Source: Deltaproteobacteria bacterium (GTDB lineage: Bacteria > Desulfobacterota > Desulfobacteria > Desulfobacterales > C00003060). From it: DNA of 64,000 nt. The position numbers were made by a program, and so were the translations under genes. This document shows positions 4,761 through 62,680 of the stretch, one piece after another. The stretch is from contig QMMN01000002.1 in the NCBI GenBank assembly GCA_003647275.1, positions 21,726 to 85,725 of the forward strand, in the 5' to 3' direction. Numbering within the stretch: position 1 is the stretch's first letter; each line of letters starts with the position of its first letter. The notes under the pieces were generated by a model that saw nothing but the letters and a program-made list of their open reading frames with translations, searched no databases and was not told the origin of the DNA.

Positions 4761-7031
4761 TTATTGGGACTCCAGGGAATCTTCAAAGATTTTGGATAAA
4801 CGCTGCTTCAGTCCCTCGGCTTCTGTGTCGTTCGGGAGTGAGCGGGCAAGTTCCCGGAACATCAGATATGCGTCAATGCGGGAAGCGGATTGGATAATTC
4901 CCCGCGCTTTCTTTATGAGGTCTCTTTTTTCCTCCTCTATATAAGTAAGAACGAGCCGTCGTTTTTTCCCTGCTTTGGCATCCAGTCTTGCTCCTTCAAG
5001 CAGGCTGGTCGCTTCTGACAACAGTCCCATTCTTGCCTTGAGTTTGGCCATGAGGAGGCGGATTTCAAAACCATTGTCCGGGATGATGTTATCAAGCTCC
5101 ATGGCGGCTTCATGGTGAAGGCCATTATCTGACAAGAAATAGATGTAAGAGATACGTTCAACCAGTTTCTCATCTTGCGACGTTTGATCCATGCCTTTGC
5201 CCACCCTTGCCATTTCCATTTGTTGTTCAGAAATTCGTTCCAGAATTTTTTCCGATTCAGTTTTCATTTTTGTAAAGGCCTCAAGATTTTTTCTGATTTC
5301 AGCACTCAGACGCCGCCCTGGTTCCGAGATAGATGCGATCTTTTGAGTCTCACGCTTGAGTTTGAACCAGATGGAAGACATATATTGATTTAGCAATGGG
5401 TTTTGAACCAAAAAATCCTGTATCTCCTTCCCGTCCTGATTGATTTGGTTTGCCAGTCCCTGGTCTATCTGGCCCCTCTTGAGCCTTTTGTCAAATTCTT
5501 CTAACGCCTTAATGCCGCGAGAGCAAATTTCCATTGTCTTTTGGAAGACCTTGGATAAGGCTTTCATACTGGATACAGGAAGCTTCTCTCTAACGGTCTC
5601 CAGAGATAAAGACGCAGATGGCAGCTTCTTTGAAAGGTCAGGCAGATTTTTACAGACCTCATCTATGTCCATTTCTAAAGTCCCCTCGATACGAGCGCCT
5701 GACAAAGTCGCGTTGATCGGTCTTGCTTCCGAGCATTTGATGTGCCACTCAAGGTGACGTTTAATATCTGAAAGGTGGGGAAAGGTCCTGACTATTGTAT
5801 TATGCATGCCAGGGGCCTTGATTAAACGAGGATCATCGGGCTCAAGGTGCCTCCTGAAGTGGTGCCCGTTAGCATGGGTAACATTGTCCACGGCCAGATC
5901 AAGTCCGATCAGGATAATGGGATCTGCCTCCAAGTAAACAGCCAGATTAAAGGCAAAAACGGCCACAGAGGTTCCTGTGCTTAAGGAGAGTCGGTGGTGC
6001 TTGTGGGAAGGAAGCATAGGGTAAAGTGCTTTTTGAGGTACGGCAAAACAAGGCCCAAGGTATTTTTTGACGAATTTAGGATGGGAGGAGGAAGAAAAAA
6101 TCAGCGGGGTCTGCTGGGCAAATCGGGTATGTTTTAGCATACCAAAAGACTCAATATTCTTATCAGATGTCAAGACGAAGTCTGCTGCAATGCCATTGGA
6201 TAGTAGGTTCCTCCAGGAGGCAGCAAATGCGAAAACAAACATCTTTTTTTGCGCCTGGCTTATTTTTTCCATGGACCGATCCAACGAGGGGCCAGGGCCT
6301 ACCAGAAGGACAGGCTTGCCCTTGACTAGAGATTTGAGTATTTCCACACCGGGCACCAGAGATACAATGATGGTGTTTTCGATCTCATTTTGAATTGAGG
6401 TCCTGCCAATTAGGGTGGCATTTTTTATCAGTACATTCGCATAACGATAGGCCTCCTCTATTTGTTTGCCCCATTTTTTATATTCAATGGATATCGCCTC
6501 GCTTCTGGGATCCACAATAACTTTAATTTTCTTATGTAGAAGCCCTTTGCTGAGGAGATGCAGAAAAAGATTCTCAATGGCCTTTTGGTCGGGCTTTACA
6601 ATGTGCAGGTTATCAGTTCTGATGGGCTCGACAAGGTCCACTTGGTGCAATGCCAGCTTAAGCAGCCAAGGATTTGGCTCCAGGACCATGATATGATGTC
6701 CATGGGCCATCTTTTGAAGAATTGCACTGACAGTATATCCCAGACCCATTCCCACCAGACAGGTCATACTACCGCTTGAAAGGTCCATGCCATGAATGAC
6801 CGAAAACTCTGCTTCAACAGAGGGGGATCTCTCATAATAGAGAACCTGGTTTCCGGATGATAGCCGAATCAGGAGATTAGCTGAACCGTCGTTGGTTGGC
6901 AGGGGGCTTATACCTGGGTCCGCTTGGGCGCCATCAAGCCAGGTGTGCAATTCCGGGTTAAGATCGAAGAGCGCCTCCATGTTCTTTTTAAAGATATGGC
7001 TGCCTTCGAGAGGTAGTTTTTGTTTTAACAT
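4761..7031 (-). CDS. maf: Motility accessory factor (Maf, DUF115/MptE-like) putative flagellin glycosyltransferase with a long helical C-terminal extension
   Basis: 756-aa ORF. DUF115 core motifs are VLLVGPGPSLDRS, FVLTSDKN and GTSVAVFAFNLAVYLEADPIILIGLDLA. N-terminus FKKNMEALFDLNPELHTWL. It lies next to the flagellin locus, convergent with the GT4 gene and divergent from the 1416-aa GT gene. Confidence 0.8.
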   Translation of the reverse strand: MLKQKLPLEGSHIFKKNMEALFDLNPELHTWLDGAQADPGISPLPTNDGSANLLIRLSSGNQVLYYERSPSVEAEFSVIHGMDLSSGSMTCLVGMGLGYTVSAILQKMAHGHHIMVLEPNPWLLKLALHQVDLVEPIRTDNLHIVKPDQKAIENLFLHLLSKGLLHKKIKVIVDPRSEAISIEYKKWGKQIEEAYRYANVLIKNATLIGRTSIQNEIENTIIVSLVPGVEILKSLVKGKPVLLVGPGPSLDRSMEKISQAQKKMFVFAFAASWRNLLSNGIAADFVLTSDKNIESFGMLKHTRFAQQTPLIFSSSSHPKFVKKYLGPCFAVPQKALYPMLPSHKHHRLSLSTGTSVAVFAFNLAVYLEADPIILIGLDLAVDNVTHANGHHFRRHLEPDDPRLIKAPGMHNTIVRTFPHLSDIKRHLEWHIKCSEARPINATLSGARIEGTLEMDIDEVCKNLPDLSKKLPSASLSLETVREKLPVSSMKALSKVFQKTMEICSRGIKALEEFDKRLKRGQIDQGLANQINQDGKEIQDFLVQNPLLNQYMSSIWFKLKRETQKIASISEPGRRLSAEIRKNLEAFTKMKTESEKILERISEQQMEMARVGKGMDQTSQDEKLVERISYIYFLSDNGLHHEAAMELDNIIPDNGFEIRLLMAKLKARMGLLSEATSLLEGARLDAKAGKKRRLVLTYIEEEKRDLIKKARGIIQSASRIDAYLMFRELARSLPNDTEAEGLKQRLSKIFEDSLESQ

Positions 7032-14250: not shown

Positions 14251-14414
14251 TCATGGATTTCAAAAAAGTTTTCAGACAGATTTTTTCGCTCACTTAAGGT
14301 AAAAAATCGCGCCCTTTAGATAATGGTTAGAAGCATCCTGAGACAGAGGCCAGCCCGAAGAAAATAGTTGTAGACTTTATGACGGTTGGACGTCGGGGTT
14401 ACAGAAGGAATTCA

Positions 14415-16058
14415 ATGAGCAACCAGACTCAAAACAAGAAAGCTTTGCCAAAGATTTCTCTTTGCATGATCGTGAAGAATGAAGAAGAGATGCTTCCAAA
14501 GTGTCTCAGCAGTGTTAAGCATTTTGTGGATGAAATCATTGTGGTGGACACGGGTTCAACCGATAGGACCGTTGACATAGCCCAGAGTTATGGCGCAAAG
14601 GTCTATCACCATCCCTGGGAGGATGACTTCAGCAAGCACCGAAACCAGTCCATTTCTTATGCCGCCGGAGATTGGATCTTCATTATGGATGCGGATGAGG
14701 CGTTAAGGCCTGGAGATGGCGTAAAGATTCGAGAGGCGATTTCACACCCTGAAATCGATAGTGTGATGGTTGTCGTGGTCAATTTTTTTAATCAGGGAAC
14801 AAGTCAGAGTTTATTCAATCAGGTGCGTTTGTTCAAAAGAGATCCAGCCATCTTTTACTCGGGCATTGTTCACAATCAGCTGACCGGATACCAGTCAACC
14901 GTGGCCTGTTCCGCACAGATCTATCACTATGGTTATGATTTGGGCCAGGAGAGGATGCAGGCAAAGTTTGTTCGTACTTCCTCTCTGCTAAAGAAAAGAA
15001 TAAAACAGGACCCTGAAAATTTTCGCCATTATCATGACCTCGCTGTCAGCTATTCCATGAACAGAATGTTCGATGAAGCTGTCTCGGCAGGTATCAAGGC
15101 GATTGAATTAGCCAAAAACACTGAAAAAAAAGGCGGGGTTCTGATTCTGTGGACCTACTTTATTGTGGCATCCTCGTTGCTGATACAGAGAGATTTTCAG
15201 GGGGCAGAGAAGTATGCCCTTGAGGCACTGAAAAGATTTCCTAACCATCTTGATTCCCATTTTATTCTTGTAATGGCTTATCACGGATTGAAGGATTGGG
15301 CCCGTGTGAAAGAGGTTTCCGATGACTATTTCAATCTTCTCAAGGCCGTGCAGGAGCACCCCGGTCGCTTTGGCTATATTGTCAACAATACCACTGGAGA
15401 AGCTTGGCGCGTTCATCTGGTTTTAGGAGATTATTACCTGGAACAAGGGGATGTTCATCGGTGTAAGGAGGCATTTGATCATGCTTTTTCCGGTGCGCCA
15501 GTGGCATTTGAATGCCTGAAGATTATTGCCGACAGTTATAAAAACCGATCCTTATGGAAGGAGGCCGCCTATTATTACCAGCAGGCCTTCAAGGAAAAGG
15601 GTGACTTTCTGGGGGCCTTGTTGGGTCTGGCCTTGGCAAAGAATCGCCTTGGTAAAAAGAGAGAGGCCATCCAATATTATGAAAGGGCTTTGGAATTAGA
15701 ACCTGATTCCATTGAGGCCCTGGTCAACTTGGGCGACCTTTACTGTGAACAAGGGGAGGAAGATCTTGCTCAAAAATTCTATGAGAAGGCCCTGGGCATT
15801 GAATCCAAACTCGTCAATGTTTCACTTCGGCTGGCTAACTTTTCCGTGCAAAATGGTGAACTTGAGAAATGCGTGAGCTATTGTGAAAATATTCTTGAAA
15901 GCCTTGGTCTGTCGTTCAACCGCCCACTGGAAAGCGTATCGGATTTGGCTGATCTCTTTTTGATTATTGGCCATGAGTTGGATAAATCTGGGAGGGATGA
16001 CCTGTTTAGGGAGGCCATGAAGGTCGCGTTAAATCTAAAACCAGAACTAATAGCATAG
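14415..16058 (+). CDS. GT2 glycosyltransferase with C-terminal TPR domain (paralogue 1)
   Basis: GT2 motifs are ISLCMIVKNEEEMLPKCLSSVKHFVDEIIVVDTGSTDRTVDIA, HHPWEDDFSKHRNQ and DWIFIMDADE. The C-terminal half is TPR repeats. ATG 14415 (RBS GAAGGA) is preferred over the ORF-track start at 14379. Confidence 0.85.
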   Translation: MSNQTQNKKALPKISLCMIVKNEEEMLPKCLSSVKHFVDEIIVVDTGSTDRTVDIAQSYGAKVYHHPWEDDFSKHRNQSISYAAGDWIFIMDADEALRPGDGVKIREAISHPEIDSVMVVVVNFFNQGTSQSLFNQVRLFKRDPAIFYSGIVHNQLTGYQSTVACSAQIYHYGYDLGQERMQAKFVRTSSLLKKRIKQDPENFRHYHDLAVSYSMNRMFDEAVSAGIKAIELAKNTEKKGGVLILWTYFIVASSLLIQRDFQGAEKYALEALKRFPNHLDSHFILVMAYHGLKDWARVKEVSDDYFNLLKAVQEHPGRFGYIVNNTTGEAWRVHLVLGDYYLEQGDVHRCKEAFDHAFSGAPVAFECLKIIADSYKNRSLWKEAAYYYQQAFKEKGDFLGALLGLALAKNRLGKKREAIQYYERALELEPDSIEALVNLGDLYCEQGEEDLAQKFYEKALGIESKLVNVSLRLANFSVQNGELEKCVSYCENILESLGLSFNRPLESVSDLADLFLIIGHELDKSGRDDLFREAMKVALNLKPELIA

Positions 16059-22379: not shown

Positions 22380-24000
22380 AAAACGCACGCCTACGATTTC
22401 ACTGTGCATGATCGTAAAAAATGAAGAACAGTTTCTTGGCCAGTGCTTGAATAGCGTGAAAGATTATGTGAACGAAATGATCGTTGTGGATACGGGTTCA
22501 ACAGACAAGACCATTGAGATCGCCAAAGGCTTTGGTGCAAAGGTTTACCATCACCCATGGGAGAATGATTTCAGCAAACATAAAAACCAGGCGATTGCCC
22601 ACGCGACCGGAGACTGGATTTTCATCATGGATGCTGATGAAGAGCTAAGGCAGGGTTCTGGTCCTATTTTAAAAAAGGCTGTAGCGAATACGCAAATAGA
22701 CGCTGTTATTGTCACACTTGTCAGCTATTTTAACAATAAAGCGAGCCAATCTTGGGAAAGCAAGATAAGGCTTTTCAAAAATCACCCCTCGATCCGTTAT
22801 GAAGGAATCGTCCATGAGCAGCTCGTGGGCTATAAGTCCGCCCGAATGTATCCTATTTATTTGCAACATTATGGATATGATTTAGACCCTGAACAACAGC
22901 AAAAGAAGTTTGAAAGGACGTCTTCGCTCTTAAAACGGCAGATAAAAGAAGACCCCGAAAATTATTGGCATCATCACAACCTCGCGGTTTGCTATTCCAG
23001 CAACTTTATGTTTTCAGAGGCCGTGGAGGAGGGAATGTGCGCCCTGGCCTTAGCTGAAGACCAGGGCCTACGAGGCCCGACCCTGTTATGGACACTCCAT
23101 ATTGTAGCGGCCTCATACCTGAAGCTGGGCAATCTATCCAAGGCAGAAGATTTAGCACTGAAAGCCCTTAAGCAGTCAAAGAATCACTTGGACCCCCATT
23201 TCATTCTGGTTCTCATCTACCACCAGCAGAAGCAATGGAAGAGCCTTGAGCGCCATGCCAAAGCATTTTTTCGGGTTGTGGAGCTGATGAAATCCTCGCC
23301 AGAAAGTTTTGCGGGCTCAATTATTAATATGGCCGGTGAGGGCTGGCGGGTGCGCTTAGCCATGGGCGATCTCCATTTGGAGAGAAATGAGTTAGAAAAA
23401 GCCAGGGCTGCCTTTGAAATAGCCCTGACCGAAACGCCCGTGCCATTTGAATGTCTCAAAATTATTGCAGATTGCTATAAGAACCATTGCTTATGGAAAG
23501 GTGCCGCTCATTTTTATCGACAGGCAATCAATGAAAAACAGGACTTTTTGGAGGCTGTTTTTGGTCTGGCCTTGTCCAAAAATCGTCTCGGTCAGAAGAA
23601 TGAGGCCATTAGATATTATGAAAAGGCCTTGGAATTAAAGCCCGATTCCATTGAGGCGCTGGTCAATCTGGGAGACCTTCACTATGAACAAGGCCTTGAA
23701 GACCTGGCTCAAGAATTTTATGAAAGAGCCATGGATGTTGAATCCAATCTCATCAACGTTTCCCTTCGGCTGGCCAATTTTTCCGTGAAAAAAGGCGAAA
23801 TTGAGAAATGCGTGAGCTATTGTGAAAATATTTTCATAAGCCTTGGTCTGTCGTGCAACCGCCCACTGGAAAGCGTATCGGATTTAGCCAATCTCTTTTT
23901 GATTATCGGCCACGAGTTGGACAAGGCTGGGAGGGATGACTTGTTCAGGGAGGCCATGGAGATCGCGATCAGAATCAAGCCGGACTTGCTCCAAGGTTAA
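22372..24000 (+). CDS. GT2 glycosyltransferase with C-terminal TPR domain (paralogue 2)
   Basis: MNRKRTPTISLCMIVKNEEQFLGQCLNSVKDYVNEMIVVDTGSTDKTIEIA, HHPWENDFSKHKNQ, DWIFIMDADE, then TPR repeats. ATG 22372 overlaps the upstream stop (tATGAATAG), which suggests translational coupling. The ORF-track start at 22255 lies inside the upstream gene. Confidence 0.85.
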   Translation: MNRKRTPTISLCMIVKNEEQFLGQCLNSVKDYVNEMIVVDTGSTDKTIEIAKGFGAKVYHHPWENDFSKHKNQAIAHATGDWIFIMDADEELRQGSGPILKKAVANTQIDAVIVTLVSYFNNKASQSWESKIRLFKNHPSIRYEGIVHEQLVGYKSARMYPIYLQHYGYDLDPEQQQKKFERTSSLLKRQIKEDPENYWHHHNLAVCYSSNFMFSEAVEEGMCALALAEDQGLRGPTLLWTLHIVAASYLKLGNLSKAEDLALKALKQSKNHLDPHFILVLIYHQQKQWKSLERHAKAFFRVVELMKSSPESFAGSIINMAGEGWRVRLAMGDLHLERNELEKARAAFEIALTETPVPFECLKIIADCYKNHCLWKGAAHFYRQAINEKQDFLEAVFGLALSKNRLGQKNEAIRYYEKALELKPDSIEALVNLGDLHYEQGLEDLAQEFYERAMDVESNLINVSLRLANFSVKKGEIEKCVSYCENIFISLGLSCNRPLESVSDLANLFLIIGHELDKAGRDDLFREAMEIAIRIKPDLLQG

Positions 24001-47097: not shown

Positions 47098-47113
47098 TGG
47101 CACAGTAATTGCT
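47098..47113 (+). promoter_or_regulatory. Sigma-54 promoter candidate (best match in the window)
   Basis: TGGCACAGTAATTGCT has GG at 47099-47100 and GC at 47111-47112. It lies about 245 bp upstream of ATG 47357. A small hairpin with a T-run follows (ggcag-gtgtt-ctgcc-cctttttg). Confidence 0.65.
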
Positions 47114-47201: not shown

Positions 47202-47358
47202 ACAGGCTGTTGCCCAAACAGCCGTGCACGTGGCATGAGGAAAGCAAACACCAAAAGAGGGCTGAAACTTGAAAATGCACAGCGAATGCTAACCCTGCAG
47301 CTTGCTGCGGGAAGCTTTAATTCTCGTGATTTGGGCAAATAGTCTGTCAAGATCTGAT
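47202..47358 (+). repeat. Dispersed intergenic repeat, family 2, copy B (with an internal insertion of about 45 nt)
   Basis: acaggctgttgcccaaacagccgtgcacgtggcatgaggaaagcaaacaccaaaagagggctgaaacttga...tcgtgatttgggcaaatagtctgtcaagatctgat. It carries TGGCATGAGGAAAGCA, with GG/GC at sigma-54 spacing. Its 3' end abuts the ATG of the TPR gene. Confidence 0.8.
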
Positions 47359-49876
47359 GTTCGTGAATTTTTCGTATAAAAAAGCCGTCCTCATAGCATG
47401 GTTAACCTTTGCCTTGAATCTTGTTGTGGTCCAGTACGCGGATTCAAAGGGCCGTGCCGTGATTCATCAAGTGTTGAGGGAATCTAAGGAGGATGGCTCC
47501 AGCATCATTATCAAACTAAGTGGTAATCCCCGCTACAAAGTGATCGGGATAGAGAAAAGGGAGATCTTGATTGCACTAAAAGATACTGAGCTTTCCAAGG
47601 GGCTTTCCAATAAGCAAATCGCAGGTGATGGGCTGATACAGCATATAGAGATCAACAAGAAGCCGCACAATGTGAGCTGCTTGCTTGTTAAGCTCCGAAA
47701 ACCATATATCAGGATTGATCACCAGATAGAGACCGGTAAGGGTAGACTGTGGATTCGAATCACGGATAAAACAGGCGTGTCCACAGGGACATCCACAACA
47801 GCTTCTTTTAACAAAGCTTCAAAACCAGGTGTATCAGATTCCCCTCTTTTACCTACGGAGATGGAAGCCCCTGTGGCCCTGAGTAGGTCGGGGGGTATCG
47901 ATGAACTGCTGAATCCAGGCACCAAGGATGCCACACCAGACACAGATCTTTTCCTGCGGGCTGTAGAGCACTTTCAGGAAGGCAGATGGGATGATGCGAT
48001 TCAAATTTTTAGAAAGATCATGAAAGCCTATCCTGGCAGTCCCCATTTAGAACGGGCCTATTTCCTGCTGGCAAAAAGTTATGATCATAAATTCAAAAAG
48101 AATATTTCAGATCATTTTATGGAGGTCATAATACACTACCGTGAGGCTGTAAGTAAATTTCCCAATTCTGTTTTTGTGCCTGATGCCATGGTATCCATGG
48201 GGAACTGTTACTTTAAAGCAAAAAATTACTATGAGGCCCTGGCCCATTACAACCTTGTCTACAAAAATTATAAGACCCATGCAGTGGCCCCCGAAGCCCT
48301 ATTTCAGCGAGGAAAGATCCTTGCCTTAACCAAAAAACCACAAGAGGCAATTAAGAGCTTTGAGCAGCTTGAATCACGCTATCCTGAAACGCCATTTGCC
48401 AGAACCGCAAAGGTCGAAAGGGCCAAGGCGCTCTTTGACATGAACGCCTTTAAACGTTCCCTGAGGCTGCTTGATGAAGTCATAACCGTAGAACCGGACA
48501 AAGTTTATGAAGATCCAGATATTCTTCTCTATTTTGGTTATAACTACTATGAGCTTGGAAGATTAAAAGAAGCAAGGGATCTCTTGTGTAAAACCTTGAA
48601 CTGTTATCCCGATATAGAATCAAGCCATTTGGTCTTGACAAGGATTGCCGACACCTACCGAGAGGAGGGGATGGAAGCTAAGGCATTAAAATTGTACAAC
48701 ATGGTATTAAGGAGATACCCTGATAGCGAAGGGGGGCTGATTAGCCTGCTTCGCCTTTCTGTAAATAGCGAAGGGGTTGCATCTGAAAAGCAGCTTCTCG
48801 CGGGGCCAGTTGAAGAAATAACCTACAATAGGCCTACGGATGAGACCTACAAAGAGATCATGAAGTCGCATGGAGACCATCCCCTATCCCAGCTTGCCGG
48901 GCTGAGGCTTGCACACGAGCAACTGAAACACAAAGATTATGAAGGGAGTATCCAAACCCTTAGAGGTATCCTGTCTAAACATCCTGATACCCCTTTGTCG
49001 GAGGACATCAAGTCTGCCCTTCGAACATCAATGGAAGCCATTTTTAAAAGGGAGCAGCAAGCAGGAAATTATGAGAATATCCTAAATTACTATGAACAGA
49101 TGAAGGATCTATTGAGCATTGAAGATGCGCCGAATCTCCTTTTGATACTCGGTGATACTTACAGAAGGCTTCATCTGTACGATCGTGCTATCTCCATGTT
49201 TGAAAAAGCCAAAAGTTCGTACACAGATCAAGATCAACCTGGCACGCTGCTGTTCGGTTTGGGGGAATCTTTTTATAAGGTAAAAAGGTTTGAAGAAGCC
49301 CAACAGCCGCTTGAGGTCTTTGTTGCAAGATATCCTGAGGACAAACGGTCAGCCCGGGCCTATTTCTTCATAGGGGATATGATGCTTAGGCAAAAAAAGT
49401 ATGACAAAGCAATGGCGGCCTTTAATCTGGCCAGGCAGAAAACCACTGAGAAAGATATTAAAATCCGCATACTTATGGGCATGGCCGAAGCATTAAGCGG
49501 TGGGGGAGATTATGATAAGGCATCCAGTGTGTTGAACAAAGCCATCGCGTTGCTGAGTCAGAACAAGCGTGATTCGTTGATAGACATCTACGATGCCTAT
49601 CAGAGGCTGGGTGAGACGTATCTTAAACTTGGAGACAATGAACAGGCTGCATCGGCGTTTGAGATGGCCCTTAAGGTTAGCCCCAAGGGCCGGAACGACC
49701 ACCGCCTGCAATTCAGGCTTGCGGAATGTTATCAAAAGCTCCAGGCAAGAGATAAGGCGGAGCGAATATTAAATCAGATTATCGTTGCTGGTGACCCATT
49801 CTGGAGCAGGATGGCCGAGGCAAAGATCAATGAGATTCGCATAGAAAAAACCGTTGAAGGGCTGGGTCATACTTGA
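47357..49876 (+). CDS. Secreted TPR-repeat protein with an AMIN-like N-terminal beta domain (tentative)
   Basis: Signal-peptide-like N-terminus: KKAVLIAWLTFALNLVVVQYADS. AMIN-like segment: SSIIIKLSGNPRYKVIGIEKREILIALKDTEL. More than 10 TPR or YbgF-like repeats follow. No obvious RBS, so the start is uncertain. Confidence 0.7.
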   Translation: MFVNFSYKKAVLIAWLTFALNLVVVQYADSKGRAVIHQVLRESKEDGSSIIIKLSGNPRYKVIGIEKREILIALKDTELSKGLSNKQIAGDGLIQHIEINKKPHNVSCLLVKLRKPYIRIDHQIETGKGRLWIRITDKTGVSTGTSTTASFNKASKPGVSDSPLLPTEMEAPVALSRSGGIDELLNPGTKDATPDTDLFLRAVEHFQEGRWDDAIQIFRKIMKAYPGSPHLERAYFLLAKSYDHKFKKNISDHFMEVIIHYREAVSKFPNSVFVPDAMVSMGNCYFKAKNYYEALAHYNLVYKNYKTHAVAPEALFQRGKILALTKKPQEAIKSFEQLESRYPETPFARTAKVERAKALFDMNAFKRSLRLLDEVITVEPDKVYEDPDILLYFGYNYYELGRLKEARDLLCKTLNCYPDIESSHLVLTRIADTYREEGMEAKALKLYNMVLRRYPDSEGGLISLLRLSVNSEGVASEKQLLAGPVEEITYNRPTDETYKEIMKSHGDHPLSQLAGLRLAHEQLKHKDYEGSIQTLRGILSKHPDTPLSEDIKSALRTSMEAIFKREQQAGNYENILNYYEQMKDLLSIEDAPNLLLILGDTYRRLHLYDRAISMFEKAKSSYTDQDQPGTLLFGLGESFYKVKRFEEAQQPLEVFVARYPEDKRSARAYFFIGDMMLRQKKYDKAMAAFNLARQKTTEKDIKIRILMGMAEALSGGGDYDKASSVLNKAIALLSQNKRDSLIDIYDAYQRLGETYLKLGDNEQAASAFEMALKVSPKGRNDHRLQFRLAECYQKLQARDKAERILNQIIVAGDPFWSRMAEAKINEIRIEKTVEGLGHT

Positions 49877-49913: not shown

Positions 49914-51260
49914 ATGCATAAAAGTCACATTTTACTCATAGAAGATATGGATCAAGAAAGGGCTGCCTTGTCCGAGACCTTGAAGGGCTATGGATACAGG
50001 GTCACGGCTGTCAGCAATGGTGTCAACGCCCTGGAAAAACTCAAGGGTCAGGATTACGACCTTGTCATATCCGACCTTAAAATGCCGGAACTAGATGGTA
50101 TAGAATTATTAAGGAGGGTTAATGAAGAAGAAATCGCTGTCCCTGTCATCATCATTTCAGGATACGGAACGGTCGAATCTGCTGTTGAGGCCATGAAACT
50201 GGGCGCCTTTGACTTTATTTTGAAGCCTTTTGCACCAAAAGTCATGAACTCTGTTGTCGAGAGGGCGATTCGGTGTCGTGTATCTTCATCTCCTGGGACA
50301 GATTCAGGTCCAATGGAGCCTTTAATTATTACCAGGAATCGTCAAATGCTTGATCTGTTGGACTTGGCAAAGACTGTAGCCGACAGCAAGGCAGCCGTAT
50401 TGATTCAGGGAGAGAGCGGTACAGGAAAAGAACTCTTTGCTCGTTTCATTCACAACCAGAGTTCGAGGCGTAACAAAACTTTTGTGGCGGTCAACTGCGC
50501 AGCGCTTCCAGAAGGACTTTTAGAAAGCGAACTCTTTGGACACGAAAAGGGGGCCTTTACTGGGGCAGTTTCAAGAAAACTCGGCAAGTTTGAATTGGCC
50601 CGGGGTAGCACCATACTCTTAGACGAAATAAGCGAAATGAACATACAACTCCAAGCCAAGCTGCTTCGGGTATTGCAGGAGTCTGAGGTTGACAGGGTGG
50701 GTGGCCAGCATCCTATTCCTATTGACGTCCGCGTGATTGGGACGACGAACCAGGATATCGAGTCGGCCATAGAGGCAAAAAAGTTCCGGGCAGACCTTTA
50801 TTATCGCTTGAACGTCATACCGATCAGGCTACCACCCCTGCGGGACAGAAAGGATGATATACCCCTGTTAGCGGATTATTTTATTAAGAAATACAACAAG
50901 ATAGACGGTCGTGATGTCAAAGGGTTGACAAAAGATGCAGCCCAGACGCTCATGCGCATGCACTGGCCCGGCAACGTCAGGGAACTGGAAAATGTGATGG
51001 AGCGGGCCGTGCTTCTTTGTGGTGGGGATCTGATCGACAAAGATGCGCTTTTTGCAGGTGAGAGGCCCAAAGCCGTTGGGATGCCCGAGTCATCATCCAT
51101 ACCGGCCGGTTCCCTCAAGGAGATGGAAAAAAGGGTGATTTTGGAAACTCTGGATCAGACGAATGGAAATCGAACTCACGCTGCAGAAATTCTTGGCATT
51201 AGTGTGCGGACACTAAGGAACAAGTTGAACGAGTACCGAGAAAAGATGGAAATGCTTTGA
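49914..51260 (+). CDS. Sigma-54-dependent response regulator (NtrC family), second paralogue
   Basis: MHKSHILLIEDMDQERA..DLVISDLKMPELDG, GESGTGKELFA, ESELFGHEKGAFTGA, ILLDEIS, HTH SVRTLRNKLNEY. ATG 49914 is preferred; the ORF-track start at 49854 overlaps the upstream gene. Confidence 0.9.
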   Translation: MHKSHILLIEDMDQERAALSETLKGYGYRVTAVSNGVNALEKLKGQDYDLVISDLKMPELDGIELLRRVNEEEIAVPVIIISGYGTVESAVEAMKLGAFDFILKPFAPKVMNSVVERAIRCRVSSSPGTDSGPMEPLIITRNRQMLDLLDLAKTVADSKAAVLIQGESGTGKELFARFIHNQSSRRNKTFVAVNCAALPEGLLESELFGHEKGAFTGAVSRKLGKFELARGSTILLDEISEMNIQLQAKLLRVLQESEVDRVGGQHPIPIDVRVIGTTNQDIESAIEAKKFRADLYYRLNVIPIRLPPLRDRKDDIPLLADYFIKKYNKIDGRDVKGLTKDAAQTLMRMHWPGNVRELENVMERAVLLCGGDLIDKDALFAGERPKAVGMPESSSIPAGSLKEMEKRVILETLDQTNGNRTHAAEILGISVRTLRNKLNEYREKMEML

Positions 51261-56375: not shown

Positions 56376-57733
56376 AACATAGCGATTCCCGACTAATGAA
56401 TAACGACATGCGCTGGAATCACTATACAGATGCTGTAAACGCCTGCCAGTGCTTAACGGCTGAAGGTCGTGTCGTTAAGGTTGTTGGACTGATTGTGGAA
56501 GGACTTGGTCCGGGGAAGGGTGTGGGGAGCATTTGCGTTATTCACAATGCGGCCGGAGAGGAGGTTCGTGCTGAAGTTGTCGGCTTCAAGAACCACAGGA
56601 TTATTTTGATGCCGTACGGAGAAATGCGAGGCATCAGCCCTGGGTGTAAGATCACGTTGGTTGATGAACGCCCTTATGTCCCAGTCGGTGACGCTTTTCT
56701 AGGAAGGGTGGTCAATGGTTTGGGTGAACCTATTGATGGGAAGGGAGCAATCCCCTCAAACGTTCGATATCCCCTGTATGGCAATGTTGTGAATCCTATG
56801 GAGAGACGGCCTATCCGTGAAGTGGCGGACGTAGGTATCGGTGCGATCAATGCCTTCATAACGATTGGCAAGGGACAGCGAATGGCTATTATGGCCGGTT
56901 CGGGTGTTGGCAAAAGCGTGTTGATGGGAATGATAGTACGACACACCACGGCTGACGTAAGCGTCATCGCCCTGATTGGAGAGCGGGGACGTGAGGTCAA
57001 AGACTTTGTTGAACAAAATCTCGGCCAGGAGGGTCTTAAAAGATCGATTGTTGTGGCGGCAACATCGGATGTGTCTCCGTTGATAAGGATGCGTGGGGCC
57101 TACCTGGCAACTACCATTGCAGAATATTTCAGAGACCGAGGACTCGACGTCATTTTAGTTATGGACTCTATCTCAAGGTTTGCCATGTCTTGTAGGGACG
57201 TAGGTTTGGCCGCAGGAGAGCCGCCCACCGTAAAAGGATATACACCTTCATTCTTTTTTCAACTGCCCAAGCTTCTGGAACGCGCTGGCAGTATTGAGGG
57301 CAAGGGAAGTATCACCGGTATCTACACGGTCCTGGTCGAAGGGGATGATATAAACGATCCTGTGGGAGATGCTACACGAGCTATTGTAGACGGACATATC
57401 GTACTTTCGAGAAAACTGGCTAATCGTGGCCATTATCCGGCCATAGATGTGCTTGCGAGCGTCAGCAGGGTTATGCGAGATGTCGTGGACCCTGAGCACT
57501 TAAAACTTGCCGAGAAGATTAGAGACATCATGGCGACCTATAGTGATGCCGAGGACCTCATCGCTATCGGGGCATATGTGGATGGAAGTGATCCAAAGAT
57601 AGATTATGCCAAAAGTATGATTGACAAGATCAATGCCTTTTTAAAGCAGGATGTTTCCGAGCAAGTATCATTTCGCGTTGGGATAAACAGGGTAAAGGAG
57701 ATGCTTCAAGGCCCCGATCATGAAAAGGTTTAA
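56363..57733 (+). CDS. fliI: Flagellum-specific ATP synthase FliI
   Basis: Walker A GSGVGKSVLMGMI, Walker B DVILVMDSISRFA, plus GSITGIYTVLVEGDD. The start is uncertain (ATG 56363, 56396 or 56408). The first candidate lies inside the dyad repeat. Confidence 0.9.
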   Translation: MTNDQHSDSRLMNNDMRWNHYTDAVNACQCLTAEGRVVKVVGLIVEGLGPGKGVGSICVIHNAAGEEVRAEVVGFKNHRIILMPYGEMRGISPGCKITLVDERPYVPVGDAFLGRVVNGLGEPIDGKGAIPSNVRYPLYGNVVNPMERRPIREVADVGIGAINAFITIGKGQRMAIMAGSGVGKSVLMGMIVRHTTADVSVIALIGERGREVKDFVEQNLGQEGLKRSIVVAATSDVSPLIRMRGAYLATTIAEYFRDRGLDVILVMDSISRFAMSCRDVGLAAGEPPTVKGYTPSFFFQLPKLLERAGSIEGKGSITGIYTVLVEGDDINDPVGDATRAIVDGHIVLSRKLANRGHYPAIDVLASVSRVMRDVVDPEHLKLAEKIRDIMATYSDAEDLIAIGAYVDGSDPKIDYAKSMIDKINAFLKQDVSEQVSFRVGINRVKEMLQGPDHEKV

Positions 57734-58172
57734 GTTCAGACTCGATCCTGTGATTCGGTATCGACAGTATCTTGAACGGATTGCCCGGATCGAGTTGGCC
57801 AGAGACAAACAAGCACTGATTGAAAGTAAAAATAGGATTCGGGAGATCAAGCAAGCCCGGCGGAACACTGCCCGTGAGCTTGACCGGGAGCAGGCGCAAG
57901 GGATTGAAGTTGATCGCTATCGGGTCTTTACAGGCTATTTACAAGGGTTGCTCCACGAGATTGAATCTGAAAGTGAACGCTTGGTTGAGATTGGCGTTAG
58001 GATAAGGCAAAAGCAGGAGGCGGTTAAGGCTGAGACGATAAAGAAGAAAACCCTAGAGTGGCTTAAGCAAACCGAATATAATAAATATTTGGAATGGATT
58101 AACCGGGCAGAACAGAAAGCAGCAGATGATCTGAGCGGGCTGCGGAGAAAATCAGTAAGCAGTAGGCAGTAG
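57720..58172 (+). CDS. fliJ: Flagellar export protein FliJ
   Basis: MKRFKFRLDPVIRYRQYLERIARIELARDKQALIESKNRIREIKQ. Coiled coil, position after fliI, overlaps the fliI end. Confidence 0.8.
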   Translation: MKRFKFRLDPVIRYRQYLERIARIELARDKQALIESKNRIREIKQARRNTARELDREQAQGIEVDRYRVFTGYLQGLLHEIESESERLVEIGVRIRQKQEAVKAETIKKKTLEWLKQTEYNKYLEWINRAEQKAADDLSGLRRKSVSSRQ

Positions 58173-58215: not shown

Positions 58216-58836
58216 ATGAACTTTAGAACGAAACATGTAAAACCTTATCTACTGGCAACCCTGTTGTGCTTTTTGATTTTAAAACTTGTGCTTGGGGCTA
58301 TGCTCCTGTACATCAAAGGACCTGTGTTGTCCGTGCCTGGGTTAGATAGCAGGCCAGCTTTGGCTGAAGATGCCGGTCGAGGCACGTCGAAGGGACCTTC
58401 GGACCAGGATCCCCTTCTTCCATCACGGCCGTCTTTGAATTCCCAAAACGTGAGCGCGAGCTTAAAAATTCTTGAACGCAGGCGTGCTGAGATAGAAATG
58501 GAAAGACGGCAACTTGAAAGTGAGCGTAAACAATTAACAGCCCTCAAGGAGGAAATTGAGGCAAAGCTTGTCCAGCTATCAAAAATTCAGGATAGCATCC
58601 AGAGCAAGCTTGAAACACAAGAGACGATTCGTAATGATAAGATCAAGCATCTCATCAAGATATATACGACCATGGCTCCCAAAAAGGCCGCTGCCCTTAT
58701 AGAAAAACTTGACATGGAGGTCATTATAGAATTGTTTTCAAAGATGAAAGGGGAAAATGTCGGGAAGATACTTCCCTATGTGTCGGCTGAAAAGGCGGCC
58801 AGGATCAGTGAACGCCTTGCCAATTTCAATGATTAA
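58216..58836 (+). CDS. MotE/YlxF-like flagellar protein (MgtE_N-type domain)
   Basis: N-terminal transmembrane segment and a coiled coil. C-terminus: MAPKKAAALIEKLDMEVIIELFSKMKGENVGKILPYVSAEKAARISERL. It occupies the same position (after fliJ, before fliK) as ylxF in the B. subtilis fla/che operon. Confidence 0.7.
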   Translation: MNFRTKHVKPYLLATLLCFLILKLVLGAMLLYIKGPVLSVPGLDSRPALAEDAGRGTSKGPSDQDPLLPSRPSLNSQNVSASLKILERRRAEIEMERRQLESERKQLTALKEEIEAKLVQLSKIQDSIQSKLETQETIRNDKIKHLIKIYTTMAPKKAAALIEKLDMEVIIELFSKMKGENVGKILPYVSAEKAARISERLANFND

Positions 58837-58848
58837 GGTGCGTAGCAC

Positions 58849-58905
58849 AAAGGGCATAGGGCAAATAGAGTTTGAGTCTTGCGCATGCTCTATGCTATGC
58901 CCTTT
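58849..58905. terminator. Long hairpin between convergent genes (possible bidirectional terminator)
   Basis: aaagggcatag (58849-58859) pairs with ctatgcccttt (58895-58905). An inner pair is atagag (58865-58870) with ctctat (58888-58893). There is no clear U-run. Confidence 0.4.
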
Positions 58906-59398
58906 ACGGTTGTGTTACCTTCTCAATATTTATATTATAGGTGCTCTGCGATTTAGCGGGGAGGCTGGTTTCTGGCTCGGGGGCCAGACGTGTACCATAT
59001 ACAATGCTTTCATGTCCATGGTCGTCGACTATCCTTTTCACCGGTATGCTATTGACCATTTGCATGATCACCTCATCTGAAAAGCCCGCCTTTTTTAACA
59101 TCTCTATTTGTTCAATGGACAGCTCAGCTTTCTTGGGGTTCTTATAACGATCTGCCAAAATGACCGATTTCAGCATCGCGTCATTTGCCCCGGCACTTTT
59201 GAGTTTTATCAGAGACTCACCGGTTATGGAACAGGTTTGTTCCGCGATCAACATTTGAATCACACTATCACTGATCTTTGCGCTTTTCATCCTTCTGATG
59301 TCATCAGGGCCAACCAATGAGTTCATGGCCAAAACCAGCCCGGAAAAGATAAGCGTTATACCTACCACGCAGAGCCAGAGGATAATGATTCTTTTCAT
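58904..59398 (-). CDS. Small secreted or membrane-anchored protein with three copies of a repeat of about 18 aa (unknown family)
   Basis: MKRIIILWLCVVGITLIFSGLVLA is signal- or anchor-like. Repeats are IRRMKSAKISDSVIQMLI, LIKLKSAGANDAMLKSVI and IEMLKKAGFSDEVIMQMV. The RBS GAGGGGG precedes ATG 59398, which is preferred over the ORF-track start at 59425. Confidence 0.6.
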   Translation of the reverse strand: MKRIIILWLCVVGITLIFSGLVLAMNSLVGPDDIRRMKSAKISDSVIQMLIAEQTCSITGESLIKLKSAGANDAMLKSVILADRYKNPKKAELSIEQIEMLKKAGFSDEVIMQMVNSIPVKRIVDDHGHESIVYGTRLAPEPETSLPAKSQSTYNINIEKVTQP

Positions 59399-60251
59399 GA
59401 TCTCTTCCCCCTCGTAAGTTATCAAAACGCCTTGTTGCTTTTCCTCCTGTTGTGAGGTCGGCTCGAAGAGCCAGCCTAAGCAGGATTATCATTCCATCCC
59501 TTCCAGTCTGGGATGAGTATATTGCGCAGGCGTTCGGTTGGTAGCGTTTCGTTTGGGCACTTTATGAAACAGAGCAATATTTGTGCCTAGGATTATATAC
59601 GCATTATGGCAACACACAATCAGAGGATGGTTGGTTTCTAGTTCTTGCCAAAGGCGGACGGCTGTTGGTTGAACACTTGCTAACAAGGGTAGGCACTAAA
59701 CATAAATATCCACCAGGGTTCCTTTTTCAGAAGCAATGTCCCGGGGTAATCGTCGGGACCCCTGATTTTCGGGATTTTTCTCTGAGGTAGTTTCGTATCG
59801 GTCCCCAGGGATGGCAGTCCTTTGATAAGGCTTGGCAAGATATGTGCTGTTCTTTGTAAAAGGAACAATCGCTAGATTTTTGGTGGGATTCACTTCCATA
59901 GCTGGGTACCCCCCCTCTTTAAAGGTGTAAGGCTTTGGGCGCAAGGCTCACGGTTGTCTGTTTTTCTCTTACGGCGTTTGCCGTGCGCACAATGTCCAGC
60001 GCTTTTGAGATCTCTTAAGAGATGAGTACTGCTCCCGCATGATTTTAGTGCATTATTTTTACTTACATTATAAATGTATTTATAGAAAGTCAAGCCTTTT
60101 TGTCTCAGGTCGCATGGATATGGGAAATATTTTCCTCCTCAGCCTTAATCATGGAAAAACTTTCTATTTAAGGAGGGCCCCAAATGCTTCTTGCTGGGCA
60201 TCATTTTTACAACCTGATGTATTCATTGAAAATAAATAAAATCACCTTTTC

Positions 60252-60267
60252 TGGCATGCTCATTGCT
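60252..60267 (+). promoter_or_regulatory. Sigma-54 promoter candidate for fliK-flgD-flgE
   Basis: TGGCATGCTCATTGCT has GG at 60253-60254 and GC at 60265-60266. It lies about 50 bp upstream of ATG 60318. Confidence 0.65.
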
Positions 60268-60317
60268 CACAAGATGTGCAGCAGTCACAAAAAACAGGAC
60301 GATACAATGAGGAAACC

Positions 60318-61928
60318 ATGAGTCTGCATTCGATGAAACTTGGGCTTATCTTGAAAAACCTGAAAGTTGAACCGTCTCAGGGCAATGCTACAGGGTCGGT
60401 AAATTCTGGGGGACTATTTTCAAGGCTCTTGGAACAGACGATGAAGTCTGCTAGGGGACTTCTTTCGCCTGCAGCCCGCAAAGGAGCGAAGGCAGGAGGA
60501 ACCGACCGGGGATGGCTTGAGCATTTTAGAAATCGATTAATGTCCTTGGGTATTCCCCTTAAAGATATGTCATTATCCAGCGATGCCTTCCCTGATTTAA
60601 AAAAGCTCCTGATGGGGCAAGGATATTCAGAATCAGAGATTAACAGTTTTCTCAAAAAACTGCTTCACGGGAAACCATGGCCTGAGATTAAGGTTACCGA
60701 ACTTCTTGAAAAACTCTCTGAGCTAAAGGCGTTGTCCAAAAAGAAATCCCCGGATCCTGCCATAGAGGTGTCGGCCGTAGCCTATATAGAAGCTTCACTG
60801 CACCGCCTCGGCCTGGATGTCCAGGAGGTAAACAGGGCAATAGCTCAGGCAAGGGCGCGCGCGGGGCAGGTTAACCTGGAAAGTTTGATCCAAAATCTGA
60901 AAGGCATTCTCAGGGGTTTACCTGAGGGAAAACAGCTAAAAGCTGACGGGAAAGCCGCCGAGGATATAAAGGGCATGCTGGCTCGCATAGGGATGATTAA
61001 TAAAGCGGGCGATGTCAATGGCCCCATCTCTTTGGAACGATTTATCCAGATACTCGAACAAAGGATGGCCAGCATGATGCCCGGCCGTCTGTCAGACACA
61101 CAGATCGAAAATCGCGTAGACCGTCTCATGGACAACGTGTTGGTGGCCTCAGGACAAGACGAGACAAAATCCAGTGTTCGGCCCCTTTATGGCGGTAAAC
61201 TTAAGGGCCTCCCCGGTGATGACTTAAAGGCGAATCAGGCACATAAACAAATAGGGAAGGGGGAGGACCCAGCACTTCAAGTAAAAAGGCCAGCAACTGA
61301 GGTGAAGGGGACTGCTGAATTTCAGACAAAAAAAGAGAAAGAGGCATTCTTCCCTAAAATGGAAAAGCTGGTCGAAGCCATAGAAGGGGCACGTGGAAAG
61401 AAGGCGGTTGATCAGGATAAAGGGACCTTGCTACATGGGGTCAGAGAGGCGATCATGGATCGGGTGCCTGTGATGAAGGAGGGAGGCAGGCCCATTCCCG
61501 TTTACGTGGCTAACCAGGTTGCAAGACAGATCTCGCTTTCCCTCCAAAGGGGAGAAAATCACATCAGGCTTCAATTAAAGCCCCCTCAGCTTGGGTCCAT
61601 TCAAATTGACATGGATATGAAGGATAGCGTGCTAAAGATTGGAATAACCACTGAACTTCATTCAGTCAAGGAATTCTTGACAACCAGTATCCATGAACTC
61701 AGAGACACCTTGGTACAGCAGGGCGTAAAGCTTGAGAGAGTAGATATTCAGGTTAGCTATAATCTTGACCAGTCTATGGCCCATACCCAAAGGGACCTCA
61801 AACATGCACACTCCGGGAGGCGTAGTTCGGCGACTGCATCTGCTATTTCGTCAAGTGAGGCGGACAGCAAGGAGGATGCGTCGTTGGCCAATATCCGGAG
61901 CAATGCCTTATTGGATATGTTTGCGTGA
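60318..61928 (+). CDS. fliK: Flagellar hook-length control protein FliK
   Basis: C-terminal Flg_hook domain: IRLQLKPPQLGSIQIDMDMKDSVLKIGITTELHSVKEFLTTSIHELRDTLVQQGVKLERVDIQV. ATG 60318 (RBS GAGGAAA) is preferred over GTG 60276. Confidence 0.8.
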   Translation: MSLHSMKLGLILKNLKVEPSQGNATGSVNSGGLFSRLLEQTMKSARGLLSPAARKGAKAGGTDRGWLEHFRNRLMSLGIPLKDMSLSSDAFPDLKKLLMGQGYSESEINSFLKKLLHGKPWPEIKVTELLEKLSELKALSKKKSPDPAIEVSAVAYIEASLHRLGLDVQEVNRAIAQARARAGQVNLESLIQNLKGILRGLPEGKQLKADGKAAEDIKGMLARIGMINKAGDVNGPISLERFIQILEQRMASMMPGRLSDTQIENRVDRLMDNVLVASGQDETKSSVRPLYGGKLKGLPGDDLKANQAHKQIGKGEDPALQVKRPATEVKGTAEFQTKKEKEAFFPKMEKLVEAIEGARGKKAVDQDKGTLLHGVREAIMDRVPVMKEGGRPIPVYVANQVARQISLSLQRGENHIRLQLKPPQLGSIQIDMDMKDSVLKIGITTELHSVKEFLTTSIHELRDTLVQQGVKLERVDIQVSYNLDQSMAHTQRDLKHAHSGRRSSATASAISSSEADSKEDASLANIRSNALLDMFA

Positions 61929-62002: not shown

Positions 62003-62680
62003 ATGTCTATAGCAGCGCTTGGACCAACCTATATCAGTGAGGATGAGACGACACGTTATACCAGCCCGAAAGATGTCTTGGGTCGAGATCAATTCCTGAC
62101 CCTGCTGGTAGCCCAGCTTCAACATCAAGATCCCTTAAACCCCCTGGAAAGCACGGAGTTTACCGCGCAACTGGCCCAGTTCTCCAGCCTTGAACAGTTG
62201 TTTTCGATAAACGAGAACCTGATGAATATTCAAGAAGGGATCCGCTCACAGGAATACGGGGATATCCTTGGCTATATCGGGAAGACAGTAAAGACAACGG
62301 ATAATACGATTCAAGTAAGCAATGGCACAATGGAATCAGGCTCCTATACCCTGGAGGATCGGGCCGATGTGGCCGTTTTTATATACGATAGCGACGGCAT
62401 GGAGGTCCGAAGGCTCTATCCGGGCTGGCAGGATCCTGGTGAGCATGCGCTCGCCTGGGACGGCAAAGACAATACAGGCGACAAGGTGGCGGATGGCACT
62501 TACACCTTTGAGATCGAAGCTCGGAATGAAAGAGGTGCCATTGTTCCTTACAGCACTTATTTAACGGGAGAGGTTACGGGTGTGACCTATCAAGGCGGTA
62601 TCCCCTATCTGATGATCGGGGATCAGTTGGTGACACCTGAAAACATTGTAGAGGTTACGAAAACAGTGGCAGGGCAGTAA
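62003..62680 (+). CDS. flgD: Flagellar hook assembly (capping) protein FlgD
   Basis: LGRDQFLTLLVAQLQHQDPLNPLESTEFTAQLAQFSSLEQL. FlgD Ig-like part: HALAWDGKDNTGDKVADGTYTFEI. Confidence 0.9.
   Translation: MSIAALGPTYISEDETTRYTSPKDVLGRDQFLTLLVAQLQHQDPLNPLESTEFTAQLAQFSSLEQLFSINENLMNIQEGIRSQEYGDILGYIGKTVKTTDNTIQVSNGTMESGSYTLEDRADVAVFIYDSDGMEVRRLYPGWQDPGEHALAWDGKDNTGDKVADGTYTFEIEARNERGAIVPYSTYLTGEVTGVTYQGGIPYLMIGDQLVTPENIVEVTKTVAGQ

Follow-up and report, generated by a model that had tools for sequence, protein, structure and literature searches.

Which elements separate the MotE/FlbB-like gene from fliK in the flagellar cluster of an uncultured Desulfobacterales bacterium, and do they belong to the working parts of that cluster? 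The question is raised by the interval 58837-60317 of a 64,000-nt stretch of genomic DNA, referred to throughout as the window. The initial annotation had recognised there a Bacillus subtilis-type fla gene order (flgB...fliJ, ylxF-like, fliK, flgD, flgE), interrupted ahead of fliK by an opposite-strand gene and by a gap devoid of convincing open reading frames (ORFs), and had ascribed the interruption to an insertion which broke the ancestral operon. The analysis reported here points to another reading, to which a probability of about 0.72 is assigned: the interval would be a compact, conserved, divergent regulatory unit, located inside a flagellar operon of the B. subtilis/spirochete type.

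The fla-type gene order itself was borne out by profile matches and by the gene table of contig L001 (ENA ERZ1742239 NODE_77), which carries the same locus and from which the wider order was read. Genes for FlgB-FlgC-FliE-FliF-FliG-FliH-FliI-FliJ-MotE-like are followed by two opposite-strand genes, and then by those for FliK-FlgD-FlgE-MotA-MotB-FliL-FliM-FliN. A co-linear, same-strand series flgB...fliJ-ylxF/flbB-fliK-flgD-flgE is not found as such: the order is kept, and the two opposite-strand genes break it at the FlbB-like/fliK junction. One of them encodes a secreted protein of 164 amino acids (aa), P164; the other, a small gene of 67 codons, lies between P164 and fliK. The coordinates of all features are collected in Table 1.

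The locus was compared with those of relatives, found in a first round (16 loci), in genomes (13 loci) and in metagenomes (21 loci). FliJ and the MotE-like protein encoded on one strand, P164 and the small ORF on the other, and FliK and FlgD again on the first, were found in all loci with enough flanking sequence (about 30), with the small ORF present in nearly all of them. Identity in these syntenic loci goes from 75% down to 43% for P164, and down to about 30% for FliK. P164 lies on the opposite strand between the MotE/FlbB-like gene and fliK wherever a related Desulfobacterales locus extends far enough on both sides. Relatives thus share the arrangement, including a conserved gene in the supposed gap, which is annotated as hypothetical at most; the initial annotation had named such a situation as one which would refute its reading. 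The arrangement is ancestral to a sizeable clade, and not recent.

The forward strand carries the control region of fliK. The sigma-54 promoter which the initial annotation had placed at 60252, TGGCATGCTCATTGCT, is a canonical match: it fits TGGCAC-N5-TTGCW, with GG at -24 and GC at -12 in the exact spacing, and the exact consensus is matched 3 times in the window, against 0.21 expected. TGGCAY-N5-TTGCT was found ahead of fliK in 16/16 first-round loci, in further metagenome loci and in the outgroup locus L051, and the promoter is kept in every locus covering the fliK upstream region. As had been proposed, the hook genes from fliK on appear to have an RpoN-type promoter of their own.

Alignment of the DNA upstream of this promoter revealed three conserved blocks, GGAAATATTTTCC, GGAAAAACTTTC and TGTATTCATTGA, amid diverged sequence. 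The first, a near-palindrome, occurs exactly once per locus, always at this place, in 17/26 loci compared, with one- or two-base variants in L007, L020 and L022; from locus to locus it keeps a constant distance of about 115 nt from the -24 element. The second lies about 30 bp from the first and about 85 nt upstream of the fliK promoter; the tandem GGAAA...TTTC sites can be written as GGAAATATTTTCC-N17-GGAAAAAnTTTC, with the sigma-54 promoter 85-115 bp downstream. A distance of about 30 bp corresponds to three helical turns and is typical of tandem dimers of NtrC-type enhancer-binding proteins. GGAAATATTTTCC and GGAAAAACTTTC are likely activator sites of the fliK promoter. The third block falls between these sites and the promoter, which is the usual place for DNA-bending proteins; it was rejected as a site for integration host factor (IHF), whose consensus it matches poorly by eye. 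Variable columns in the region are spread as 33/30/30 over the three codon phases. A plus-strand ORF, 60039-60239, gave tblastn matches down to 1e-16 and was discarded as a gene, as it shows no codon periodicity and many relatives do not keep its frame open. The region is thus conserved as regulatory, not as coding DNA.

The activator is most likely an NtrC-type enhancer-binding protein; the response regulator (Response_reg, Sigma54_activat and HTH_8 domains) encoded directly upstream of flgB, at 49914-51260, is the best candidate. GGAAATATTTTCC is not known to fit any activator binding site, and a literature search returned nothing specific to the locus or to this motif. A search of the window for GGAAA-N3-TTTCC yielded no convincing further site upstream of other promoters. 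A perfect palindrome, TGAAAATATTTTCA (23823-23836), resembles the core of the fliK upstream site; it is apparently coding, has no sigma-54 promoter nearby and is probably coincidental.

The gap, 59426-60250, was thought to contain short overlapping ORFs only, two of them on the minus strand, in the same frame and separated by a TAG, and possibly to hide a decayed gene. Comparison with the relatives gives a different picture. The upstream ORF of the two (59696-59944), if started at the ATG at 59899, turns out to be a conserved gene for a 67-aa protein; an ORF of 62-75 aa is found on the same strand, directly upstream of P164, in 16/16 first-round loci and in nearly all metagenome loci. The homologues have in common an N-terminus, M-x-V-N-P-x-Q-N...P-I-x-K, and a C-terminus, (F/Y)-E-K-G-x-L-V-D-x-Y-(A/V)-stop. 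The ratio of nonsynonymous to synonymous substitution rates (dN/dS) ranges between 0.16 and 0.86, being below 1 in 12/12 pairs tested, and third-position changes are in excess in the more diverged pairs. The C-terminal codons vary synonymously (AAA/AAG, GGA/GGT/GGG/GGC, CTG/TTG/TTA/CTC, GAT/GAC, TAT/TAC), and the stop, be it TAG, TGA or TAA, falls at the identical position. Because relatives stop at the same place, the TAG separating the two in-frame ORFs is a true stop. Homology does not run past it, and the downstream ORF, 59489-59686, has no counterpart in any relative examined; a pseudogene with an in-frame stop, extending over 59489-59944, was discarded for these reasons. GGAGG or GAGGG motifs similar to the Shine-Dalgarno sequence AGAGGGGGGG precede the gene in most relatives. 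An open frame, purifying selection and a ribosome-binding site are found together, one lineage lacking the ORF, and the small gene is, by every comparative measure applied, intact and protein-coding, with no sign of the decay suspected at first.

Gene callers often miss the small gene, which is annotated as a hypothetical protein where called, and only 10 called homologues were found, all from one clade. No Pfam or NCBIfam match was obtained at E up to 10 for 16 members of the family, and the searches of the gap ORFs with both collections were equally empty. The AlphaFold2 (AF2) model has no secondary structure and a predicted local distance difference test (pLDDT) score of 57.6, and the protein is predicted to be disordered. 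Its identification as FlgM was tried and rejected: hhalign gives a probability of 0.3% against the FlgM of outgroup L048, Pfam and NCBIfam give nothing, and helices are absent from the AF2 model. A likeness of the C-terminus to that of YjfB-type motility proteins finds no support in Pfam and is not claimed.

For the neighbouring gene, an alignment of 30 sequences and the AF2 model uphold the length and the three repeats which had been reported. The layout of P164 consists of a signal peptide, three helix-hairpin repeats (L..LK.AG.sD..I), a beta hairpin and a disordered tail with a NINIEKV motif. The protein had been described as signal-anchored; a cleaved signal peptide is more likely, the relatives reading AWA/MNSLV (the slash marks the end of the signal peptide). 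Further on, the alignment shows invariant EQT, ILADRYKxP and D..G.E motifs and the NINIEKV tail. The AF2 model, which contains the three helix hairpins, the beta hairpin and the disordered tail, has a mean pLDDT of 68.8, with values of 80-92 over residues 31-80, corresponding to the first two repeats. P164 would be periplasmic. It matches no Pfam family at the cut-off of the family; sequence comparison with the PDB gave no match, and a Foldseek fold search gave nothing below E = 1.9.

Homologues of P164 form 57 cluster representatives, all from metagenome-assembled genomes classified as Desulfobacterales or 'Deltaproteobacteria' and from metagenomes; in GTDB, 13 species-level genomes carry the gene. 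An exhaustive HMMER search of 1.84 billion representatives detected 25 proteins at E<=1e-10 and 125 at E<=0.001, the weaker matches being other small secreted three-repeat proteins. Two distant relatives were looked up and neither is in a flagellar locus. The subfamily found at flagellar loci (NSLV...EQTCS...ILADRYKNP...NINIEKV) is confined to Desulfobacterales metagenome-assembled genomes.

Each of the two genes has a promoter candidate facing it. Ahead of the small gene, a sigma-70-like motif, TTGACW-N17-TAnnAT, occurs 26-62 nt before the ATG in most of the 25 loci scanned, with a conserved TTGACT box; neither a sigma-28 promoter nor a second sigma-54 promoter was found upstream of the gene, by eye and by scan. 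In the spacer between the small gene and P164, the site AGGCACAAATATTGCT matches 10/11 positions of the sigma-54 consensus and is one of just 6 sites with at least 10/11 in 128 kb (both strands of the window). Sites with at least 9/11 positions, mostly CGGCATCAATGTTGCA, are found in the equivalent spacer of 11/27 relatives, against 0.28 expected from shuffled sequences; the spacer of L007 has a site with 8/11. In about 40% of the relatives, and in this genome, P164 is probably read from a sigma-54 promoter of its own; in the remaining ones it is probably co-transcribed with the small gene. The spacers of the closest relatives carry palindromic repeats in place of the sigma-54-like site. In some relatives, long palindromic GTTTGTTGTGTTT / AACACAACAAAC repeats flank P164 on both sides (L011, 3853-3964 and 4484-4590; also in the spacers of L013 and L014), with a fold of -49 kcal/mol; they look like genome-specific elements of the repetitive extragenic palindromic (REP) type or resembling miniature inverted-repeat transposable elements (MITEs).

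From these real genes and conserved sites the following organization can be proposed. On the plus strand, the promoter at 60252 would drive fliK-flgD-flgE, activated by the NtrC-type regulator encoded upstream of flgB, which would bind GGAAATATTTTCC and GGAAAAACTTTC, about 115 and 85 bp upstream. On the minus strand, the gene for the disordered 67-aa protein would be read from the sigma-70-like promoter, and P164 from its own sigma-54-like promoter here, elsewhere together with the small gene. The two minus-strand proteins most likely serve the flagellum as accessory or regulatory factors peculiar to this lineage, and would be expressed, and presumably regulated, together with the hook genes.

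Several observations weigh against this organization. All transcription starts are deduced from matches to consensus sequences, and the regulator encoded ahead of flgB is a candidate for the activator. The sigma-70-like promoter of the window has a non-optimal 15-nt spacer and was missed by a consensus scan. The closest relatives (L003, L011-L014, L027, L029) have no sigma-54-like site in the spacer, so that the P164 promoter is not universal, and AGGCACAAATATTGCT may be a chance match in the window (about 1-2%, an estimate from the count of sites with at least 10/11 positions). The lineage L030/L049 has P164 and no recognisable small ORF, which makes the pair not obligatory; in L030 (2760-2997) and L049, P164, the activator site and the sigma-54 promoter are kept, while the 240-bp interval contains an unrelated 56-aa ORF only. 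Finally, it is synteny which connects P164 to the flagellum, its distant relatives being outside flagellar loci.

The last two points would be expected if the minus-strand genes were unrelated to flagella, the junction being a permissive site which gathers genes for small secreted proteins, and the conserved DNA motifs serving fliK only. The MotE-like/fliK junction does repeatedly host small opposite-strand genes of this kind: in L050, a more distant relative, the MotE-like gene is directly followed by a different opposite-strand gene (5656-5982, minus strand), for a signal-peptide protein of 108 aa which is unrelated to P164 by eye. The promoter of the small gene, being sigma-70-like, is also not of a flagellar type. 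This explanation is nevertheless considered unlikely, in view of the strict positional conservation across deep divergence, of the P164 sigma-54-like promoter, which is found in 11/27 loci and is of the same sigma type as that of the neighbouring hook genes, and of L051, where the small ORF and the fliK control region stay together in the absence of P164. A more specific flagellar role can also be imagined, and is put forward as a quite doubtful suggestion. The 67-aa protein could be a checkpoint factor for the sigma-54-controlled hook genes, analogous to FlgM and acting one tier earlier, and P164 a periplasmic motor component or assembly factor beside the FlbB/MotE-like protein. The N-terminus of the small protein would then serve flagellar export, and its C-terminal FEKGxLVDxYA would bind the activator, sigma-54 or FliK.

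The history of the junction can be traced by means of two outgroups. In L051, whose MotE-like protein is 38% identical, FliJ and MotE-like are followed by an opposite-strand ORF of 63 aa ending in WEKGTFIDIYI-stop, then by GGGAAATATTTTCC, TGGTATAACACTTGCT and FliK: small ORF, activator site and sigma-54 promoter are all there, and P164 is absent. In L048 (Ca. Magnetomoraceae), FlgM and che genes come after FlbB, and the elements in question are all missing. As L051 has all but P164, the small gene and the fliK control region form the older unit. P164 is a later addition, which entered at the base of the clade and came to lie between the small gene and the MotE-like gene. The insertion invoked by the initial annotation is right in kind, as loci without P164 or without both genes do exist, and wrong in age and consequence, the interruption being old and maintained in about 30 loci. 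Short tandem repeats occur in enlarged intergenic regions near fliK, with CCTGACA units in L014 (about 1000-1400) and CAGAGGT/CAGAGAT, GGTTCAG and GTTCGAT units in L051 (5620-5680 and 6100-6380).

A recent event, in which a foreign gene would have entered between ylxF and fliK, leaving 0.9 kb of non-functional DNA or a TAG-broken pseudogene, is largely refuted by the synteny and is regarded as highly improbable. Besides the outgroups without P164, what could suggest it is the DNA peculiar to the window: the spacer between the small gene and P164, which varies between 17 and 297 bp among relatives with no sequence similarity, is the longest here (297 bp), as is the leader of the small gene among all loci, and about 100-130 bp around the palindrome ATCTCTTAAGAGAT have no alignable counterpart in relatives. 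Against this stand the roughly 30 loci with a common arrangement, at FliK identities down to about 30%, and the allegedly interrupted ORF, an intact gene under purifying selection with a normal TAG stop, followed by an ORF without homologues. Signatures of mobile elements are also absent: neither a transposase or integrase nor a tRNA or terminal repeats came to light.

The two palindromes described in the gap, considered initially as activator or IHF sites, both exist, one base off the coordinates first given: they lie at 60010-60023 and, for the AT-rich near-palindrome overlapping the sigma-70-like promoter candidate, at 60070-60083. Neither is conserved, and their frequency is at the chance level: the window contains 6 perfect 14-bp palindromes, against about 4 expected (64000 x 4^-7, an estimate), and 72 if one mismatched pair is allowed. 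ATCTCTTAAGAGAT probably has no conserved role; the conserved elements are elsewhere (60123-60135, 60153-60164 and 60218-60229). The further proposal of a structured non-coding RNA (a small RNA or a cis-regulatory leader, the small ORF being incidental), which could draw on the long 5' leaders (about 160 nt) that the two minus-strand genes are predicted to have here and on the palindrome in one of them, is hardly credible: Rfam gives nothing at gathering score in the whole window and only noise (RMST_1, sR44) at E up to 5 within 58700-60400, a scan for tRNA and transfer-messenger RNA found none, the folds of the P164 leader (59396-59562, within the spacer; z -1.55) and of the small-gene leader (z -0.51) are no better than shuffled sequences, leaders and spacer are conserved neither in sequence nor in length, and the part which is conserved shows substitutions of the coding type.

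At the other end of the interval, the long hairpin noticed after the MotE-like gene is real, according to the folds of the convergent spacer: -29.1 kcal/mol (z -2.25) for the plus and -23.7 kcal/mol (z -3.09) for the minus strand. It was rejected as an intrinsic terminator: the stem is present and no T-run follows it on either strand, as read from the sequence, nor does a consensus terminator scan report it. A hairpin occurs at the equivalent position in L003 and L011. The spacer measures just 0-12 bp in six other relatives, which makes the hairpin a lineage-variable feature. It is possibly a bidirectional barrier between convergent transcripts, of local effect at most. Two overlapping terminator-like hairpins with T-rich tails lie at 59738-59773 on the plus strand, antisense inside the small gene; these 2 are no more than chance would give (1.9 expected), but they could curb transcription running on from the MotE-like gene towards fliK.

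Table 1. Features of the interval and of the genes flanking it. Positions are those of the window; strand cells are empty for elements to which no strand is assigned.
Feature	Position	Strand	Remarks
FliJ	57720-58172	+	Pfam FliJ 5e-14
MotE/FlbB-like (ylxF-like)	58216..58836	+	last gene of the upstream flgB-fliJ block; Pfam MgtE_N; homologue names
Long hairpin	58849..58905		in the 67-bp convergent spacer (58837-58903) between the stops of MotE-like (58836) and P164 (58904)
P164, secreted 164-aa protein	58904..59398	-	ATG 59398; ribosome-binding site GAGGGGG
Variable spacer, small gene to P164	59399..59695	-	holds AGGCACAAATATTGCT and the non-conserved ORF 59489-59686
Sigma-54-type promoter-like site AGGCACAAATATTGCT	59588..59573	-	faces P164, 175 nt ahead of its ATG
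Small gene, 67 aa	59696..59899	-	MEVNPTKNLAIVPFTK...SEKGTLVDIYV-stop; ATG 59899; called by gene caller on L001
Shine-Dalgarno sequence AGAGGGGGGG	59909..59918	-	9 nt ahead of the small-gene ATG; read from sequence
Perfect 14-bp palindrome ATCTCTTAAGAGAT	60010..60023		in window-specific DNA of the small-gene leader
Sigma-70-like promoter candidate	60067..60093	-	faces the small gene; -35 TTGACT 60093..60088; 15-nt spacer; -10 TATAAT 60072..60067
Near-palindrome GGAAATATTTTCC, putative activator site 1	60123..60135		13-mer conserved among loci
Second putative activator site GGAAAAACTTTC	60153..60164		10/12 columns invariant in 16-sequence alignment
Conserved box TGTATTCATTGA	60218..60229		between activator sites and promoter; alignment
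Sigma-54 promoter TGGCATGCTCATTGCT for fliK-flgD-flgE	60252..60267	+	50 nt before the fliK ATG
fliK (hook-length control)	60318..61928	+	ATG 60318; Pfam Flg_hook 2.3e-16; 536 aa called on L001
FlgD	62003-62680	+	

Among the flanking genes, the one assigned as MotE/FlbB-like has a Pfam MgtE_N score of 27.3, just over the cut-off of 25.9, and matches NCBIfam collar_FlbB at 8e-09 with a score of 35.5, under the cut-off of 110; its homologues carry the names MotE or FlbB at their sources. At a distance from the junction, a perfect sigma-54 consensus, TGGCACAGTAATTGCT, lies at 47098-47113 on the plus strand, about 245 bp upstream of a gene for an 839-aa tetratricopeptide repeat (TPR) protein (47357-49876), which is followed by the NtrC-type response regulator gene and by flgB; the flagellar regulator may, to judge from this arrangement, itself be sigma-54-dependent. 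Past the window end, at about 64906-64921 in window numbering (L001 4478-4493, minus strand), the sigma-54 promoter TGGCACAAAGGTTGCT follows flgE and precedes motA by about 50 bp; no site of the GGAAATATTTTCC type was noticed ahead of it. With promoters ahead of both fliK and motA, the fla cluster is split into several sigma-54 units. Other sigma-54-like sites with at least 10/11 positions are located at 15166-15181 (+), 27755 (+) and 5747 (-); the site at 15166 sits within a 559-aa ORF (14379-16058).

What seemed a gap becomes a defined regulatory module, whose logic is of a well-known kind, and no part of the 1.5-kb interval is left without an assignment. The novelty consists of two unannotated protein families fixed at this position in an uncultured clade, both uncharacterised and strictly linked to a hook-gene promoter, together with a highly conserved upstream site of 13 bp which is not known to fit any activator motif and which offers a way to the activator and to its regulon in uncultured Desulfobacterales. 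Should either of the proteins act on the flagellum, a well-studied machine would gain a part or a checkpoint specific to this lineage; should neither do so, the locus remains a clear example of an ancient and stably kept interruption of a conserved operon, with downstream expression via internal sigma-54 promoters.

Sigma-54 and NtrC-type regulators control rod and hook genes in several bacteria, through FlgS/FlgR in Campylobacter and Helicobacter, FlrC in Vibrio and FleR in Pseudomonas. The locus described here resembles these systems in having a -24/-12 promoter ahead of fliK-flgD-flgE and a response-regulator enhancer-binding protein encoded in the cluster, as well as paired sites about 30 bp apart and about 100 bp upstream, the classical enhancer geometry. 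FlgR of epsilonproteobacteria is not known to have a DNA-binding domain, whereas the regulator of this cluster has HTH_8. Flagellar operons are controlled by sigma-54 and enhancer-binding proteins in Desulfovibrio as well (PMC4641369), DVU1063 of Desulfovibrio vulgaris being the counterpart there of the regulators just named. A few activator sites, most of them those of DVU1063, are reported to lie 40-70 bp downstream of their promoters (PMC4641369); the putative sites described here are instead upstream of the promoter, and the motifs differ.

Compared with helix-hairpin repeat proteins, P164 shows weak, sub-threshold matches to CPSase_L_D3, SAM_DprA and DUF7626, and to designed helical repeat proteins in the PDB; a few of its distant relatives are just over the cut-offs of repeat families, as for DUF7626 in P0084, while P164 itself is under all of them. 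The small protein invites comparison with the anti-sigma-28 factor FlgM, itself small and intrinsically disordered, which the flagellar secretion system exports. It is like FlgM in general properties only (small size, predicted disorder, a gene within a flagellar locus, conservation mostly at the two ends), and differs from it in having no sequence relationship (Pfam, NCBIfam, hhalign 0.3%).

As to the operon as a whole, the fla/che operon of B. subtilis and the flgB operon of Borrelia have fliJ-ylxF/flbB-fliK-flgD-flgE contiguous on one strand. The Desulfobacterales cluster shares with them the order from flgB to fliN and the MotE/FlbB-like gene after fliJ; it differs from them in the two opposite-strand genes at the FlbB-like/fliK junction and in its division into several sigma-54 units, fliK and motA each having a promoter in front.

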